Assembly: GCF_050920415.1 (NCBI RefSeq)
Contig: NZ_CP169309.1
Direction: 5' to 3' (one strand)
Source of the DNA: Escherichia coli
GTDB taxonomy: Bacteria > Pseudomonadota > Gammaproteobacteria > Enterobacterales > Enterobacteriaceae
Length of the DNA: 64,000 nt
Shown: positions 35,254-42,808 of the stretch, one piece after another
How positions within the stretch are numbered: position 1 is the first letter of the stretch
Layout of the letters: every line of letters starts with the position of its first letter
Translations under genes and position numbers: made by a program
The notes under the pieces: model-generated
The model's database searches: none
What the model was told of the DNA's origin: nothing
The model's input: the letters and a program-made list of their open reading frames with translations, nothing else

Positions 35254-35758
35254 ACCACATTCCTGGAAAAACGTATTGGGTAATGCAATGTTGTATAATA
35301 TTATTTTATAGTTTCAATGAATTAATTCTCTCTCCCCCATCATATAAATCACAAAAAAACAGCATTAAAAATATAATTACGGCAAATATATTTTCATTAC
35401 CTATATTAACTTTTCTCTTTATAAGAGGTTTTTAATGATAATTAACCAATTTATTCTGAGTACTATGCCTCACTCCCGGTATTAGCACTGGATAGCACTT
35501 AATTGGATTCTGTCAGGCTGGGACGGGGGCAACAAGTGCATACAACGACCTGTCCTTAACGCGTAATTATTAATTTCTACAGCGTATTATCACATTATTT
35601 AAACCTGCCCAACCTCACCAAATACATTCATAAAATGCATAATTATAATAAATCATAAAAATCCATTCACCGAAGATATTTTTCTTTAAAGAGTGTGGCA
35701 TTTATAATAAGTTTTGGTGAGAAAATTCACCACCATTAATTTTAATAAGGATATTTCT
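35254..35758 (+). promoter_or_regulatory. 505 bp AT-rich upstream region of the fimbrial operon
   Basis: strongly AT-biased by eye (long A/T runs, TATAAT-like hexamers) against a GC-balanced surrounding; typical of nucleoid-protein-silenced fimbrial promoters. Confidence 0.5.
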
Positions 35759-36325
35759 ATGTTAAATAAAAGTGCTATTGCTGCGGCATTAGTCATGTTC
35801 ACCAGTTCAGCCTTCGCGCTTGATGGCGGTCAATTAGATTTCTCAGGTTTGGTCAGTGACAATACCTGCGCCCTGCACGTCAACGGTGGCGCGCAGGACG
35901 GTCAAATTACTCTGCAAACCGCTACAACCGCTGAAGTTAATGGCGCAGGTGTCGTAAAGACTGCCGACGTTGGTGCAAAACCGGAAGCCTTTTCTATTGC
36001 GATAGATTGCTCGGGCGATCCAAAAAATAACGCCAGTCTGAGCATGGGTTCTGTGTTCTTCAGTAACAGCCAGGGCACTCTGAACAACGATCTCTCTATC
36101 AGCCAGGCGGCAACCGGGGTCGCTATTGCCATTCACTACCTTACCAATGCCACCACCTACCAACAGGTGAAAGTTAACGACAGCACCGATGTTAAAAACC
36201 TTGTGTTTACCAACGGCAAAGCGGTTTACAACTTTAAAGCGTCGTATGTTAAACAGGCAGCAACAGTTGACGCAACGGCAGGTTATGTCAAAACCAACGC
36301 CGCTTATACAGTGACTTATCAGTAA
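35759..36325 (+). CDS. yadN: fimbrial major subunit (type 1 pilin family)
   Basis: 188 aa from MLNKSAIAAALVMFTSSAFA (signal peptide) with AAGGA RBS; conserved Cys pair; C-terminal ...YTVTYQ donor-strand motif; symbol by synteny. Confidence 0.75.
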   Translation: MLNKSAIAAALVMFTSSAFALDGGQLDFSGLVSDNTCALHVNGGAQDGQITLQTATTAEVNGAGVVKTADVGAKPEAFSIAIDCSGDPKNNASLSMGSVFFSNSQGTLNNDLSISQAATGVAIAIHYLTNATTYQQVKVNDSTDVKNLVFTNGKAVYNFKASYVKQAATVDATAGYVKTNAAYTVTYQ

Positions 36326-36381
36326 ATCTCTGCATCACCCGACAGCCCACTGCTGTCGGGTAACTCAATAAGGATAGTGTT

Positions 36382-37125
36382 ATGACCAGGATGTGTCAGT
36401 TTGTTGTTTCCGCTGTTTTCATCGCATCGACAGCCGTTTTCAGCCTCACCGCGCAAGCAGATATCGTGCTTTCCGGTACGCGCATTATTTACAATGCAGA
36501 CCAGAAAGACGTTACTTTGCGCATGGAAAACAAAGGCGCCCGCCCATTATTAGTCCAGACCTGGATTGATACCGGCAGCGAGAATGCCGACCCCAGCACA
36601 TTGAAAGTGCCTTTTACCGTGACGCCACCGGTTTCCCGCGTTGATGGTAAAAAAGGCCAAACGGTTAAAATTGCGTGGAACGCCAGCCAGACCCTTCCAG
36701 CCGATCGCGAAAGCATTTATTGGTTCAATGCGCTGGAAGTTCCCCCCAAGATGAGCGATGCCGATGCCAAAGGAAAAAACATTCTGCAACTGGCTTTCCG
36801 CACCCGTATCAAGCTGTTCTATCGCCCAACCGGTCTGGCGGGTAACCCGGCTGATGCACCAAAACAGTTAACCTGGCGTCTCCAGTCTTCAGCCGGAAAA
36901 GTGGTGCTGCAGGCGACAAACCCTACGCCTTATCACGTCTCATTCAGCAGCATTACCCTTGGCTCAGGCGGTAATAAATATACCGTGGAGACCAGTATGG
37001 TCGCACCCATGAGCAGTGCGGAAATGGTGGTAAAAGGCGCTCCCCGTTCTGTGTCTGGTGCAACAGTTGATTACTCCGCCATTAATGATTTTGGCGGTGG
37101 CATTGACGGCCAAGTCAAACTTTGA
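36382..37125 (+). CDS. yadV: periplasmic fimbrial chaperone (PapD-like)
   Basis: 247 aa; signal peptide; chaperone motifs GTRIIY...LLVQTW and FRTRIKLFYRP. Confidence 0.85.
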   Translation: MTRMCQFVVSAVFIASTAVFSLTAQADIVLSGTRIIYNADQKDVTLRMENKGARPLLVQTWIDTGSENADPSTLKVPFTVTPPVSRVDGKKGQTVKIAWNASQTLPADRESIYWFNALEVPPKMSDADAKGKNILQLAFRTRIKLFYRPTGLAGNPADAPKQLTWRLQSSAGKVVLQATNPTPYHVSFSSITLGSGGNKYTVETSMVAPMSSAEMVVKGAPRSVSGATVDYSAINDFGGGIDGQVKL

Positions 37126-37157
37126 TGCCCACAAATTATATCGGCTGAGATCGTACA

Positions 37158-40358: not shown

Positions 40359-40961
40359 TTGTTTATGAATTATCAAAATATAACCTTTGTATTGCTGCTG
40401 TGCTTTGGATATATCGCCATCGGCCACGCCGCCAGTAGCTCTATGGACGTTACGGTACGCGCTAAGGTCATTGCCAGTACCTGCACGGCGGAATTGCGCA
40501 ATGCGCAGGATCAGCAAGCCACCACCATCGCAATTGGCGATGTCTATCTCAACGAGCTTTCCGCTAAATCGAAATACCAGAACTTCAGTCTGGTGTTTTC
40601 AAACTGCGAAGGGTTAGCAAAGGATCAGGCCAAAGTTGTGCTTTCGGCACAGACGGGCTGCGATGGCGCTTCCAGTTCCGGTGGCGGATATCGTAATGAA
40701 CTGACGACGGCGGACGATGATGCGGCAACCGGTGTCGCAGTTGAAGTGTGGACGACGAATCAGCCAGAAGGTCAGGGCAGCATTCAGCTTAATTGTAAAA
40801 CCAAACCGACCAGCATTGTCGATTTAACCGCGGCAACAGGCTCGAATATTGTCCACTGGCCGCTCAGTGCCCGAATTGTCATTGCATCGGATAATACCAT
40901 CGCGGATGTTCGTGCAGGTCAATTCTCCACCAACGCTATATTTTTTGTAACCTATGAGTAG
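40359..40961 (+). CDS. yadL: fimbrial minor subunit
   Basis: 200 aa, signal peptide, C-terminal ...AIFFVTYE. Confidence 0.75.
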   Translation: MFMNYQNITFVLLLCFGYIAIGHAASSSMDVTVRAKVIASTCTAELRNAQDQQATTIAIGDVYLNELSAKSKYQNFSLVFSNCEGLAKDQAKVVLSAQTGCDGASSSGGGYRNELTTADDDAATGVAVEVWTTNQPEGQGSIQLNCKTKPTSIVDLTAATGSNIVHWPLSARIVIASDNTIADVRAGQFSTNAIFFVTYE

Positions 40962-41534
40962 ATGATGATGAAAACATTTATCTACATATTCGCACTGTGG
41001 TTTTCATACAATGCCATTGCCGCCAGCACCAATATTAATATGACCGCCAATATTGTCAGCACCAGCTGTAAAGTCACGTTCGACAATAGTGGGAGTATTG
41101 ATTTAGGAACGGTGGATTACAACTACCTGAACAATAATACTTCCGTCGATCGCGTTTATACCGGTGGTCACTCGTTCTACATTTCTGTCAGCGACTGTGC
41201 GCAGGTTGCAGGAAAGAACCCTGCTCGTCTTACAGTGAGTTTTACGCCCGTCGCTGGTACGCTCGGTGCAACAAACCAACAGGTTTTCGCTAATCAGACG
41301 ACTAATGGCGCTAAAAATGTCGGCATCGTGATCTTATCCACTCAGGATGCGCAAAATATTTTCAATGTACTGGATACCCACGGTCAACCGCAGAGCATTT
41401 ATCCTGTGAGTGCCGATCAGTTAGCTAATGCTACCTATCATTTTCATGCGAGGATGCAGAAGGTCGACCTGACGCAAGCCGCGACAGCCGGCTTAGTACG
41501 AGCCAGTGTGTTTGTGGGTGTTTATTATGAGTAA
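40962..41534 (+). CDS. yadK: fimbrial minor subunit
   Basis: 190 aa, signal peptide, C-terminal ...VFVGVYYE. Confidence 0.75.
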   Translation: MMMKTFIYIFALWFSYNAIAASTNINMTANIVSTSCKVTFDNSGSIDLGTVDYNYLNNNTSVDRVYTGGHSFYISVSDCAQVAGKNPARLTVSFTPVAGTLGATNQQVFANQTTNGAKNVGIVILSTQDAQNIFNVLDTHGQPQSIYPVSADQLANATYHFHARMQKVDLTQAATAGLVRASVFVGVYYE

Positions 41535-42775
41535 TGTTTTTCGTTTTCAAGGATGATGAAATGAACCGTTTACAGCTAACAACGTGGGGCAACATTTTAT
41601 TGCTATTATTGCCCCTATATTCAGGCTGCCTCCAGGCCGCATACACACTTGTTGTCGGAGGTAAAGATACCACTGGTGATCGAGTTCAAAACAATGGTCC
41701 GGCTAGTGATGGTTATTCCACTACCATCTATACTACGGGTAGCAGCCAGGTCGTGATTGGGCGTGCCACAGCACTGCAATACAGCAATGTTAAAATCAAG
41801 CTAGATCTGGATACCGCTGCCATTCCTAATACAGGGGTTATTTACTGCTCCCCTGACGGTACGGGCGGACCGATTTCACTGGAGAACCATTTTATTAAAA
41901 GTCCGTACATCTACGATGGTCACCAACTTTTTAAAACCAATATTCAAGGGCTGTATTTTACCGCACGCATGTATGGTCTTTGGTCGTATGGTGTAGAGTC
42001 ATCAGACAACTTTTATATCGGTGATACAAATCCACAACCACTGGATCTTCGCACATCAACGTGCCCGGGCAGTTCTGGATGGTATCTGACCCTTGGTGGC
42101 TTAGTCTCTCAAATGGACATCGACTTATATAACGACGCAACCTTTGACCCCGATGCCAGCGGCAGCATTGCCCTGCTGAGTGACGCACCCTATCACTACT
42201 CTCTGAAAAATCAGTCCCCTGGCGGAAATCTCAAATCCCGTACAATTTTTCAGACGTTTAATATGGGAAATGTCACGTTAACCTCTCCTACCTGTTTGTC
42301 GGCGGTCCTCACTGGCAGCAGTGTCAGTCAGGGTGACACGGTAGGTTTGGGCGAATACAGTCCAAAAGAAGTTATTGACGGTGCGAATGGTGTGCCTTTT
42401 TCGATCACACTAAAAGGATGTTACCGGGTAACAGACATCGAAGTAAAATTGACGACAGGAGCTCCTGCGCTATCAGCGTCGCTATTGGGCAACTCGCTTA
42501 CAGCAAATGCGGCAAGCGGTGTAGGTGTAGAGATCAAAGGTAAGCCCAACTCACATTATCCAGAAGTGACGCTGATGCCCAACGACGCCTCCTCAATCTA
42601 TAAAGCGTATGGCGATAACCCGGATAACTCAAACGGTATTATTGGCAGTAACTCTTCGGGTTCTCCTGCCGACCAAACGCTGAATTTCACCGCGACTCTT
42701 AAGCAGGATGACAATCAGCAGATCCGGGCCGGAGATTTTAAAGCGACTGGCATCTTCTCAATCACCTACCCCTGA
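41534..42775 (+). CDS. yadC: fimbrial tip adhesin-like subunit (two-domain)
   Basis: 413 aa, signal peptide, N-terminal lectin-like extension plus C-terminal pilin domain ending ...GIFSITYP; start overlaps the yadK stop (TAATG). Confidence 0.75.
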   Translation: MFFVFKDDEMNRLQLTTWGNILLLLLPLYSGCLQAAYTLVVGGKDTTGDRVQNNGPASDGYSTTIYTTGSSQVVIGRATALQYSNVKIKLDLDTAAIPNTGVIYCSPDGTGGPISLENHFIKSPYIYDGHQLFKTNIQGLYFTARMYGLWSYGVESSDNFYIGDTNPQPLDLRTSTCPGSSGWYLTLGGLVSQMDIDLYNDATFDPDASGSIALLSDAPYHYSLKNQSPGGNLKSRTIFQTFNMGNVTLTSPTCLSAVLTGSSVSQGDTVGLGEYSPKEVIDGANGVPFSITLKGCYRVTDIEVKLTTGAPALSASLLGNSLTANAASGVGVEIKGKPNSHYPEVTLMPNDASSIYKAYGDNPDNSNGIIGSNSSGSPADQTLNFTATLKQDDNQQIRAGDFKATGIFSITYP

Positions 42776-42784
42776 GCCCCGCTA

Positions 42785-42808
42785 CCGGCAGGTCCCCCTG
42801 CCGGTTTT
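42785..42808 (+). terminator. intrinsic terminator closing the fimbrial operon
   Basis: CCGGCAGG-TCCC-CCTGCCGG stem followed by TTTT. Confidence 0.7.

Follow-up and report, generated by a model that had tools for sequence, protein, structure and literature searches.

What kind of fimbrial operon lies between folK and panB in a 64,000-nucleotide stretch of the Escherichia coli contig NZ_CP169309.1 (RefSeq assembly GCF_050920415.1; the whole stretch is hereafter the window), and how does it relate to the yad operon that E. coli K-12 carries at the same place? Fimbriae of this kind are built by the chaperone-usher pathway, in which a periplasmic chaperone caps the subunits, an outer-membrane usher polymerises them by donor-strand exchange, and the resulting rod bears an adhesin at its tip. 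Our reading, to which we assign a probability of roughly 85%, is that the ancestral folK-panB site is occupied in the window by an intact chromosomal chaperone-usher operon of the Yad/Sta family; that this operon is a deeply divergent cassette, not of the K-12 type, in Escherichia cryptic clade I; and that the site is a cassette site, with independent recombination of the tip genes and a move into Pseudocitrobacter vendiensis.

Seven intact frames on the + strand fill the interval from 35759 to 42775 in the open reading frame list of the window, with intergenic gaps of 0–65 bp. The gene starts used here are those of the NCBI Prokaryotic Genome Annotation Pipeline in the RefSeq record NZ_CP169399.1 (E. 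coli MFDS1022581), which is 100% identical across the operon and its immediate flanks; the RefSeq annotation of the seven genes is generic only. The genes and their neighbours are as follows, with scores against the NCBIfam models (aa, amino acids).

34777–35253, folK, left neighbour of the operon
35759–36325, + strand, major pilin at the YadN/StaA position, 188 aa; best match StaA, 139 bits, below the cut-off of 230
36337–36361, + strand, perfect 10-bp GC-rich stem-loop between the major-pilin and chaperone genes, with no U-tract after it
36391–37125, + strand, PapD-like periplasmic chaperone, 244 aa; PRK09926, 368 bits, above the cut-off of 285
37158–39764, + strand, outer-membrane usher, 868 aa; PRK09828, 1362 bits, above the cut-off of 830
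39781–40353, + strand, minor pilin 1 at the YadM/StaD position, 190 aa; best match StaD, 112 bits, below the cut-off of 228
40365–40961, + strand, minor pilin 2 at the YadL/StaE position, 198 aa; YadL, 161 bits, below the cut-off of 206
40962–41534, + strand, minor pilin 3 at the YadK position, 190 aa, opening the mosaic tip module described below; PRK15262, 190 bits, above the cut-off of 132
41561–42775, + strand, two-domain tip adhesin at the YadC position, 404 aa; PRK09723 (fimbrial-like adhesin), 274 bits, below the cut-off of 382
42894–43688, panB, right neighbour of the operon

The order dksA-gluQ-pcnB-folK, operon, panB-panC-rpnC-panD is that of the K-12 yad locus on the opposite strand, and both the folK-panB site and the succession of major pilin, chaperone, usher, three minor pilins and adhesin are those that define a Yad locus. 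Assignment of the components has been supported by domain content. The P. vendiensis chaperone, 100% identical to that of the window, carries PapD_N and PapD_C, as a PapD-like two-domain chaperone should; PapC_N, Usher and PapC_C are found on close homologues of the usher and on the identical P. vendiensis usher; and PF00419 (Fimbrial), the mark of a pilin, is recorded on the P. vendiensis copies of the major pilin, of minor pilins 1 and 3 and of the adhesin, all identical or nearly so to the window proteins. Pfam yields nothing for minor pilin 2, which the models of YadL and StaE match at E values from 1e-42 to 1e-47 (144 bits for StaE, cut-off 213). Among the NCBIfam models for Yad components, those of the chaperone, the usher and the YadK-position pilin are thus passed, those of YadL and the adhesin score below their cut-offs, and the major pilin and minor pilin 1 find their best matches, also below the cut-offs, among the Sta models. 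Because of these scores, the roles of the four pilin-like proteins concerned rest on gene position and weak similarity. Taken together, the reading frames and the NCBIfam assignments bear out the seven-gene chaperone-usher operon, in the gene order that a first-pass annotation of the same DNA had proposed. Hairpins comparable to the stem-loop at 36337–36361 occur after the major-subunit genes of pap/fim-type operons, and this one is possibly an attenuator or a stabiliser of the mRNA.

The operon differs from that of K-12 to an extent that its surroundings do not. The window aligns with K-12 positions 129922–192646 at 95.6% nucleotide identity over 54.9 kb and the flanking proteins are 88–99.6% identical, whereas identity of the operon proteins to the K-12 Yad proteins spans 33–60%. 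Amino-acid identity is 53–54% to YadN and to YadV, 59–60% to HtrE (about 65% at the nucleotide level), 36–37% to YadM and to YadL, 39–40% to YadK and 42% to YadC, and the best K-12 match of each pilin is its positional counterpart. A BLASTP-type comparison therefore bears out the divergent subunits reported in the first-pass annotation. Its further suggestion of an allelic variant locus holds insofar as this is a variant of the K-12 yad locus, but the divergence is deeper than that term conveys and the usher belongs to a different sub-clade. Identity to K-12 also declines towards the fimbrial locus from both sides (97.1, 96.3 and 93.8% on the left; 89.9, 94.9 and 96.1% on the right; panB 88.4%), a pattern that is expected around an old polymorphic cassette and supports one here.

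The host lineage has been placed by the flanking sequence, which assigns the window to Escherichia cryptic clade I and not to typical E. coli. The flanks are 97–99% identical to EC42405, a complete cryptic-clade-I genome (PMC10100065); clade-I genomes have been reported to share an average nucleotide identity of >98.3% with each other and of >95.9% with E. coli (PMC10100065). Among 5,426 complete E. coli genomes, megablast detected the window operon in 23, and a sensitive search of the same genomes returned 5,205 that match the usher at 60–80% identity only. Clade-I-like gluQ-pcnB-folK sequences (at least 96.7% identical; next best 92.6%) were present in 18 of the 5,426, and 14 of these 18 carry the window operon with its 505-bp upstream spacer, while four do not. 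One of these four, the clade-I genome 2013C-4282 (PMC10100065), has a K-12-type yad operon at the same site, at 1828–9020 of its retrieved locus piece. By sequence, K-12-type and window-type cassettes thus both segregate within clade I. Further, LHM10-1, GF4-3 and seven other genomes combine typical E. coli flanks with a third operon that belongs with the window type (usher 83–84% identical at the amino-acid level).

The usher delimits this group clearly. Protein searches and a neighbour-joining tree gather ushers of at least 81% amino-acid identity from clade I (97% in EC42405), Escherichia albertii (87–89%), the LHM10-1 type (83%), Pluralibacter lignolyticus (83%) and Pseudocitrobacter faecalis (81%), with a gap to the ushers of Citrobacter and Salmonella (62–64%) and to HtrE (59–60%). 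E. albertii carries the same seven genes at the same folK-panB locus, and diversity of the cassette family within the 14 clade-I genomes is 5–12%. Searches of plasmid and phage collections did not find the operon; the only matches were to panB/panC, in two Salmonella records and in large entries labelled as plasmids. In our view the window type has probably long been resident in Escherichia, and several deep cassette lineages share the folK-panB site.

Movement of a whole cassette between genera is indicated by comparison with Pseudocitrobacter. A scan for the usher with one genome per species returned P. vendiensis CPO20170097T and P. faecalis DSM 27453 only, and it is silent on more distant relatives because its patterns were exact query peptides. 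Two features matter here.

35736–43899, + strand, recombination tract 99.6% identical in P. vendiensis CPO20170097T (31 mismatches in 8,164 bp)
7832–8404 of the P. vendiensis retrieved locus piece, extra major-pilin-like gene of 190 aa, directly upstream of the imported cassette

The tract (8.2 kb; 8579–16742 of the P. vendiensis locus piece, contig NZ_CALSBS010000004.1) runs from 23 bp 5′ of the major-pilin ATG to 200 bp into panC. It has no mismatch at all within 42140–43899, and the genes flanking it are about 77–84% identical. Its left junction lies in conserved ribosome-binding-site and signal-peptide sequence and its right junction inside panC. The panB copy within the tract is 100% identical to that of the window, 93–95% identical to clade-I panB and 88% identical to that of K-12. 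In pcnB and panC, P. vendiensis and P. faecalis are about 90% identical to each other and each about 80–83% identical to Escherichia. Because the tract panB is of clade-I type, the donor was Escherichia clade I or a very close lineage and the recipient P. vendiensis; the transfer, a homologous replacement, thus went from Escherichia into Pseudocitrobacter. At folK-panB, P. faecalis has a seven-gene operon of its own, 66–75% identical to the window at the nucleotide level, with one such major-pilin gene only. The extra pilin of P. vendiensis, which differs in its signal peptide, is 71–72% identical in amino acids to the major pilin of P. faecalis and equally to that of the window. The same junctions recur in another public assembly (Logan, ERR3255970), which is 100% identical to the first, so that the two probably represent the same strain or the same reads.

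Within clade I, the end of the operon has a history of its own. Between the window and other clade-I strains, nucleotide identity is 88–95% from the major pilin to minor pilin 2 (about 93% in minor pilin 2 itself), drops to 75% in minor pilin 3 (40962–41534), is almost undetectable in the N-terminal half of the adhesin (47% in amino acids), stands at 68–69% in its C-terminal half and returns to 98% in the adhesin-panB spacer. The window tip genes are closer to those of the otherwise more distant LHM10-1 type (82–86% at the nucleotide level; 66–68% in amino acids in the lectin half). From this pattern of identity, minor pilin 3 and the adhesin (40962–42775) form what reads as a separately exchanged module. 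This mosaic fits the report that the variable parts of K-12-type operons are the minor subunits and the YadC lectin domain (PMC13245861).

The adhesin itself is divided as follows.

Adhesin residues ~28–240, N-terminal lectin-like domain
Adhesin residues ~245–404, C-terminal pilin domain

The Pfam Fimbrial domain covers residues 255–403 only. An AlphaFold model built with 21 homologues has two beta-rich domains and a mean predicted local distance difference test score of 86.6, and the best Foldseek matches of this model in the PDB are full-length two-domain adhesins (FimH, FocH, LpfD, CupB6, CfaE and PapG). Template modelling scores of these matches are low, as expected because inter-domain angles differ. 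A sequence search of the PDB gave only weak matches to FimF-like pilin domains, with FimF as the best. Alignment of the adhesin with K-12 YadC extends over the entire protein and shows four invariant cysteines (C96, C168, C245 and C287); its identity to YadC of 42% overall breaks down into 33% in the N-terminal half and 47% in the C-terminal half. Pfam extent, model and structural matches thus agree with the lectin-plus-pilin organisation of a two-domain tip adhesin, as had been noticed from the reading frames at first pass.

The region upstream of the operon was also compared between cassette types. Its features are as follows.

35254–35758, + strand, AT-rich spacer of 505 bp from the folK stop to the major-pilin ATG, candidate regulatory region
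35703–35708, + strand, candidate -10 hexamer TATAAT of a putative proximal promoter, 50 bp 5′ of the ATG
35715–35732, + strand, inverted repeat TGGTGA-N6-TCACCA between the candidate -10 and the ribosome-binding site, candidate 5′-untranslated-region (5′-UTR) hairpin or operator

With a GC content of 30.7% against 51.9% for the window, the spacer is the lowest 505-bp stretch in the 64 kb; only 0.08% of all 505-bp segments are as AT-rich, and it is the sole stretch below 38% GC. The sliding-window computation thus confirms the 505-bp AT-rich region of the first-pass annotation. Because near-identity to K-12 and a background-like AT content are both ruled out, the finding made there stands. Spacer identity is 94.2–97% across clade-I strains and E. 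albertii, and K-12-type, LHM10-1-type and Pseudocitrobacter loci lack the window spacer except for its proximal ~110 bp. In E. albertii the spacer is likewise 505 bp long and 94.2–94.6% identical to that of the window, while the fimbrial genes are 67–86% identical and the flanks 88–95% (gluQ 87.6%, panB 88.8%, folK 95.3%). The spacer therefore equals the best-conserved flanks and lies far above the genes it adjoins, as would be expected under constraint or if a recombination tract extended over folK as well, two explanations that these sequences do not separate.

The last ~110 bp before the ATG hold blocks that are conserved among window-type operons, namely CATTCACC, TTTATAAT, the inverted repeat and AAGGA, the last of which is the ribosome-binding site 8 nucleotides 5′ of the major-pilin ATG. 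Amid diverging sequence, clade I, the LHM10-1 type and P. faecalis all keep TTTATAAT, and TTTATGAT is its counterpart before the second pilin gene of P. vendiensis. The inverted repeat is common to the window-type family, and in P. vendiensis both of its arms have changed together (GATGA/TCATC); its folding energy is -7.4 kcal/mol (z = -0.78). A promoter scan returned 15 sites against 11.1 ± 2.6 expected and a terminator scan 12 against 8.3 ± 2.7, neither above chance, and the candidate -10 was missed by the former because its -35 region is poor. Rfam gave no match in the operon or spacer (34500–43500 at E up to 1; whole window at gathering thresholds). On neither strand does an island of normal GC content within the spacer (35454–35560) fold significantly as RNA (z = -0.8 and +0.8). 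A 50-codon frame at 35283–35435 was considered and rejected as a gene, as one E. albertii sequence has a frameshift in it.

Is the operon silent? H-NS represses yad in K-12, CFT073 and EC958 (PMC13245861), and the K-12 operon is not expressed in standard culture (PMC3559732; PMC13245861). The promoter region of the window operon is strongly AT-rich relative to its background, as is typical of H-NS-silenced operons, and the silencing by nucleoid proteins proposed in the first-pass annotation is plausible here, through H-NS, by analogy with yad of K-12 and ExPEC.

The operon is followed by these features.

42784–42808, + strand, terminator-like hairpin ACCGGCAGG-TCCC-CCTGCCGGT followed by TTTT, with a 9-bp GC-rich stem at 42784–42805
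42809–42893, + strand, adhesin-panB spacer with a promoter-like site from the promoter scan, CTAACA-18-TACAAT at 42821–42850

The hairpin at 42784–42805 folds at -18.2 kcal/mol (z = -4.5; none of 200 shuffled sequences as stable) and recurs in window-type loci, where that of E. albertii has changed in both arms (CCGGCAGA...TCTGCCGG). It was missed by the terminator scan because the run of T residues is short. A terminator is a plausible role; the strong terminator of the first-pass annotation is thus real as a stable and conserved hairpin, but overstated in strength, as only TTTT follows it. The adhesin-panB spacer (42776–42893), with its promoter-like site for panB, is kept in window-type loci of different genera, P. 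faecalis included, and K-12-type loci have a different spacer that cannot be aligned with it. Because this spacer tracks the cassette type, the upstream region of the pantothenate genes appears to be swapped along with the fimbrial cassette.

These observations can be assembled into a working model. Transcription would probably start in the conserved proximal ~110 bp of the spacer and end at the hairpin 42784–42808. Pilins exported by Sec would be capped in the periplasm by the PapD-like chaperone and polymerised by the usher through donor-strand exchange into a rod of major pilin, tipped by the three minor pilins and the two-domain adhesin, whose N-terminal lectin-like domain would set receptor specificity. 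By analogy with K-12-type yad, the operon is probably silent under standard culture conditions, with particular cues inducing it, because its AT-rich spacer is of the type that H-NS silences. On the evolutionary scale, folK-panB would act as a cassette site that is occupied, within E. coli sensu lato, by one or another of at least two deep usher lineages; the tip genes would recombine on their own, and whole cassettes would move by homologous recombination in the flanking core genes, once from clade I into P. vendiensis. A wider proposal, to which we give somewhat less than even odds, is that folK-panB is a long-lived cassette locus with trans-species polymorphism across Escherichia (E. albertii, clade I and typical E. 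coli), at which several deeply divergent Yad/Sta-type operons persist, each bringing its own promoter spacer and panB upstream region; that these are shuffled by module, the tip module separately, and exchanged across genera through homologous recombination in the core genes beside them, as for the 8.2-kb tract of P. vendiensis; and that the 505-bp spacer is a constrained regulatory module and not just AT-rich DNA.

Could the operon simply be K-12 yad after ordinary vertical divergence in a distant lineage, with no replacement of the cassette? The shared locus and seven-gene order, the best matches that agree position by position and the genuinely divergent host lineage would be explained in this way. 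It is hard to reconcile, however, with an usher only 59–60% identical to HtrE in amino acids and about 65% in nucleotides amid 55 kb that are 95.6% identical, with a K-12-type operon between the same flanks in 2013C-4282, with window-type operons between typical E. coli flanks in LHM10-1 and GF4-3, and with an usher closer to those of Pseudocitrobacter and Pluralibacter (81–83%) than to HtrE; we therefore consider vertical divergence very improbable. The last of these points, that the window-type usher clade takes in Pseudocitrobacter and Pluralibacter, would suit a recent import into Escherichia from Pseudocitrobacter or a relative, as would the 99.6% identity of the tract to P. vendiensis. 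Yet the panB in that tract is 93–95% identical to clade-I panB and 88% to K-12; the two Pseudocitrobacter species agree at about 90% in pcnB/panC, against about 80–83% with Escherichia; the cassette has accumulated 5–12% diversity across 14 clade-I genomes and E. albertii has the same spacer; P. faecalis has a native version diverged to 66–75% nucleotide identity; and upstream of the junction P. vendiensis still has an additional native pilin gene. An import in this direction has, in our estimate, only a slim chance of being correct.

Two further alternatives concern function. The silence of K-12 yad in standard culture (PMC3559732; PMC13245861) might suggest that the operon is a decaying, non-functional relic. 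This is highly unlikely in view of seven intact frames with signal-peptide-like N-termini and conserved C-terminal pilin motifs, of intact frames likewise in the clade-I, E. albertii, LHM10-1-type and Pseudocitrobacter loci examined, and of the conserved spacer, ribosome-binding site and terminator. As for control, type 1 and P fimbriae are governed by phase-variation switches, and a long and well-conserved spacer could accommodate one, so that an invertible promoter or Dam/Lrp methylation, and not silencing by nucleoid proteins, would be the main control. The spacer (35254–35758) contains no GATC site and no long terminal inverted repeats, its inverted repeats being short, AT-rich and imperfect, as its composition predicts, and no recombinase gene lies in or adjoining the operon; such a switch thus has very little probability.

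The reading of an intact and divergent Yad/Sta-family cassette, probably silenced in culture, also has points that weigh against it. The window spacer has no detectable sequence similarity to the 369-bp spacer of K-12, in which silencing has been shown, and a scan of the spacer for the high-affinity H-NS motif TCGATAAATT with at most two mismatches gave one two-mismatch match, which is uninformative because TCGATAAATT is enriched over the whole window. Expression, H-NS occupancy and pilus assembly of the window cassette are extrapolated from the family and from related systems. Four of the five pilin-like proteins score under every curated NCBIfam cut-off, and the run of T residues after the closing hairpin is short. 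The evidence from P. vendiensis comes from one strain, and, among the usher relatives, locus position was checked only in E. coli, E. albertii and Pseudocitrobacter.

Why the distinction between cassette types matters is illustrated by current surveys. Yad fimbriae contribute to bloodstream infection by extraintestinal pathogenic E. coli (ExPEC) and are controlled by H-NS (PMC13245861). A strain is called Yad-positive when its usher is at least 80% identical to HtrE of EC958, and strains with an usher below 80% are scored Yad-negative (PMC13245861). The window usher would fall in the second class, judged by its amino-acid identity of 59–60% to HtrE of K-12 and 60% to the large E. coli cluster named as HtrE usher of Yad fimbriae. 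A strain scored Yad-negative can therefore still carry an intact, conserved and very different cassette at the yad site, with an adhesin lectin domain and a promoter region that differ from those of the K-12 type. Cryptic clade I is an emerging source of strains of the Shiga toxin-producing and enterotoxigenic E. coli types (PMC10100065), and for this reason its adhesin repertoire is of practical interest. In addition, the near-identical tract of P. vendiensis exemplifies clearly how adhesin operons can cross genera by recombination in neighbouring housekeeping genes, with no need of a mobile element.

Other features were recorded in the window. In every Escherichia locus examined, the recombination-promoting nuclease gene rpnC (yadD; 44772–45680, - strand) is found two genes downstream of the cassette, and a diverged homologue occupies the same place in both Pseudocitrobacter genomes. 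An insertion sequence of the IS110 family (IS621-like; 1,276 bp, 53925–55200) lies in the REP-rich gcd-cueO spacer; it is absent from NZ_CP169399.1, which is 100% identical on both sides, with two bases overlapping at the junction, so that the window does not correspond exactly to that assembly. Its transposase is split into frames of 215 and 76 aa, and another copy in NZ_CP169399.1 is annotated as frameshifted. Rfam matches above the gathering score comprise the small RNA CssrA (1853–1962, - strand), t44 RNA (2801–2887, - strand) upstream of rpsB and the HtrA/degP 5′-UTR thermometer (11722–11767, - strand), all of which are expected for this chromosomal region.

How, then, does the operon compare with known systems? 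No description of this cassette type was found in the searchable literature, the coverage of which is incomplete. Its nearest relatives are unnamed window-type operons of E. albertii, P. faecalis, Pluralibacter lignolyticus, LHM10-1 and GF4-3, with which it shares the usher sub-clade (81–89% in amino acids), the seven-gene order, the proximal promoter, the 5′-UTR motifs and the terminator. Differences lie in the minor pilins and the adhesin lectin domain (47–68% in the lectin half), and the distal part of the 505-bp spacer is common only to E. albertii and clade I. With Yad of K-12 and ExPEC (yadN-yadV(ecpD)-htrE-yadM-yadL-yadK-yadC) it has in common the folK-panB site, gene order, orientation, a two-domain adhesin that can be aligned with YadC over its full length, and an AT-rich upstream spacer (GC 26.6% in K-12, 30.7% in the window). 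However, the two promoter spacers differ in length (505 bp in the window, 369 bp in K-12) and cannot be aligned, and the major pilin, two minor pilins and the adhesin score below all NCBIfam cut-offs. In the scheme of Nuccio and Baumler, Yad ushers belong to the gamma-4 sub-clade. Binding of D-xylose through YadC and control by H-NS have been reported for the K-12 type (PMC13245861), and are known only for that type.

Sta (staABCDEFG) represents the Yad family, at the same site, in Salmonella (PMC3559732). The likeness to Sta extends to the major pilin and minor pilin 1, whose best NCBIfam matches are StaA and StaD, but the scores reach only 139 of 230 bits for StaA, 112 of 228 for StaD and 144 of 213 for StaE, and the Salmonella ushers are 54–63% identical to that of the window. 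Type 1 fimbriae (fimAICDFGH), the structural paradigm, have the same parts: a chaperone, an usher, a pilin for the rod, adaptors and a lectin adhesin of two domains. The adhesin model resembles FimH most closely in structure, and in sequence its pilin domain comes closest, among PDB entries, to FimF. In contrast, adhesin identity in the structural alignments is 12–14%, the lectin domain of the window adhesin is larger, the gene order differs, and the window operon has neither recombinases of the fimB/fimE type nor an invertible switch. The operon probably works like the fimbriae of the Yad/Sta family, at the locus of that family, and its mechanism is not new.

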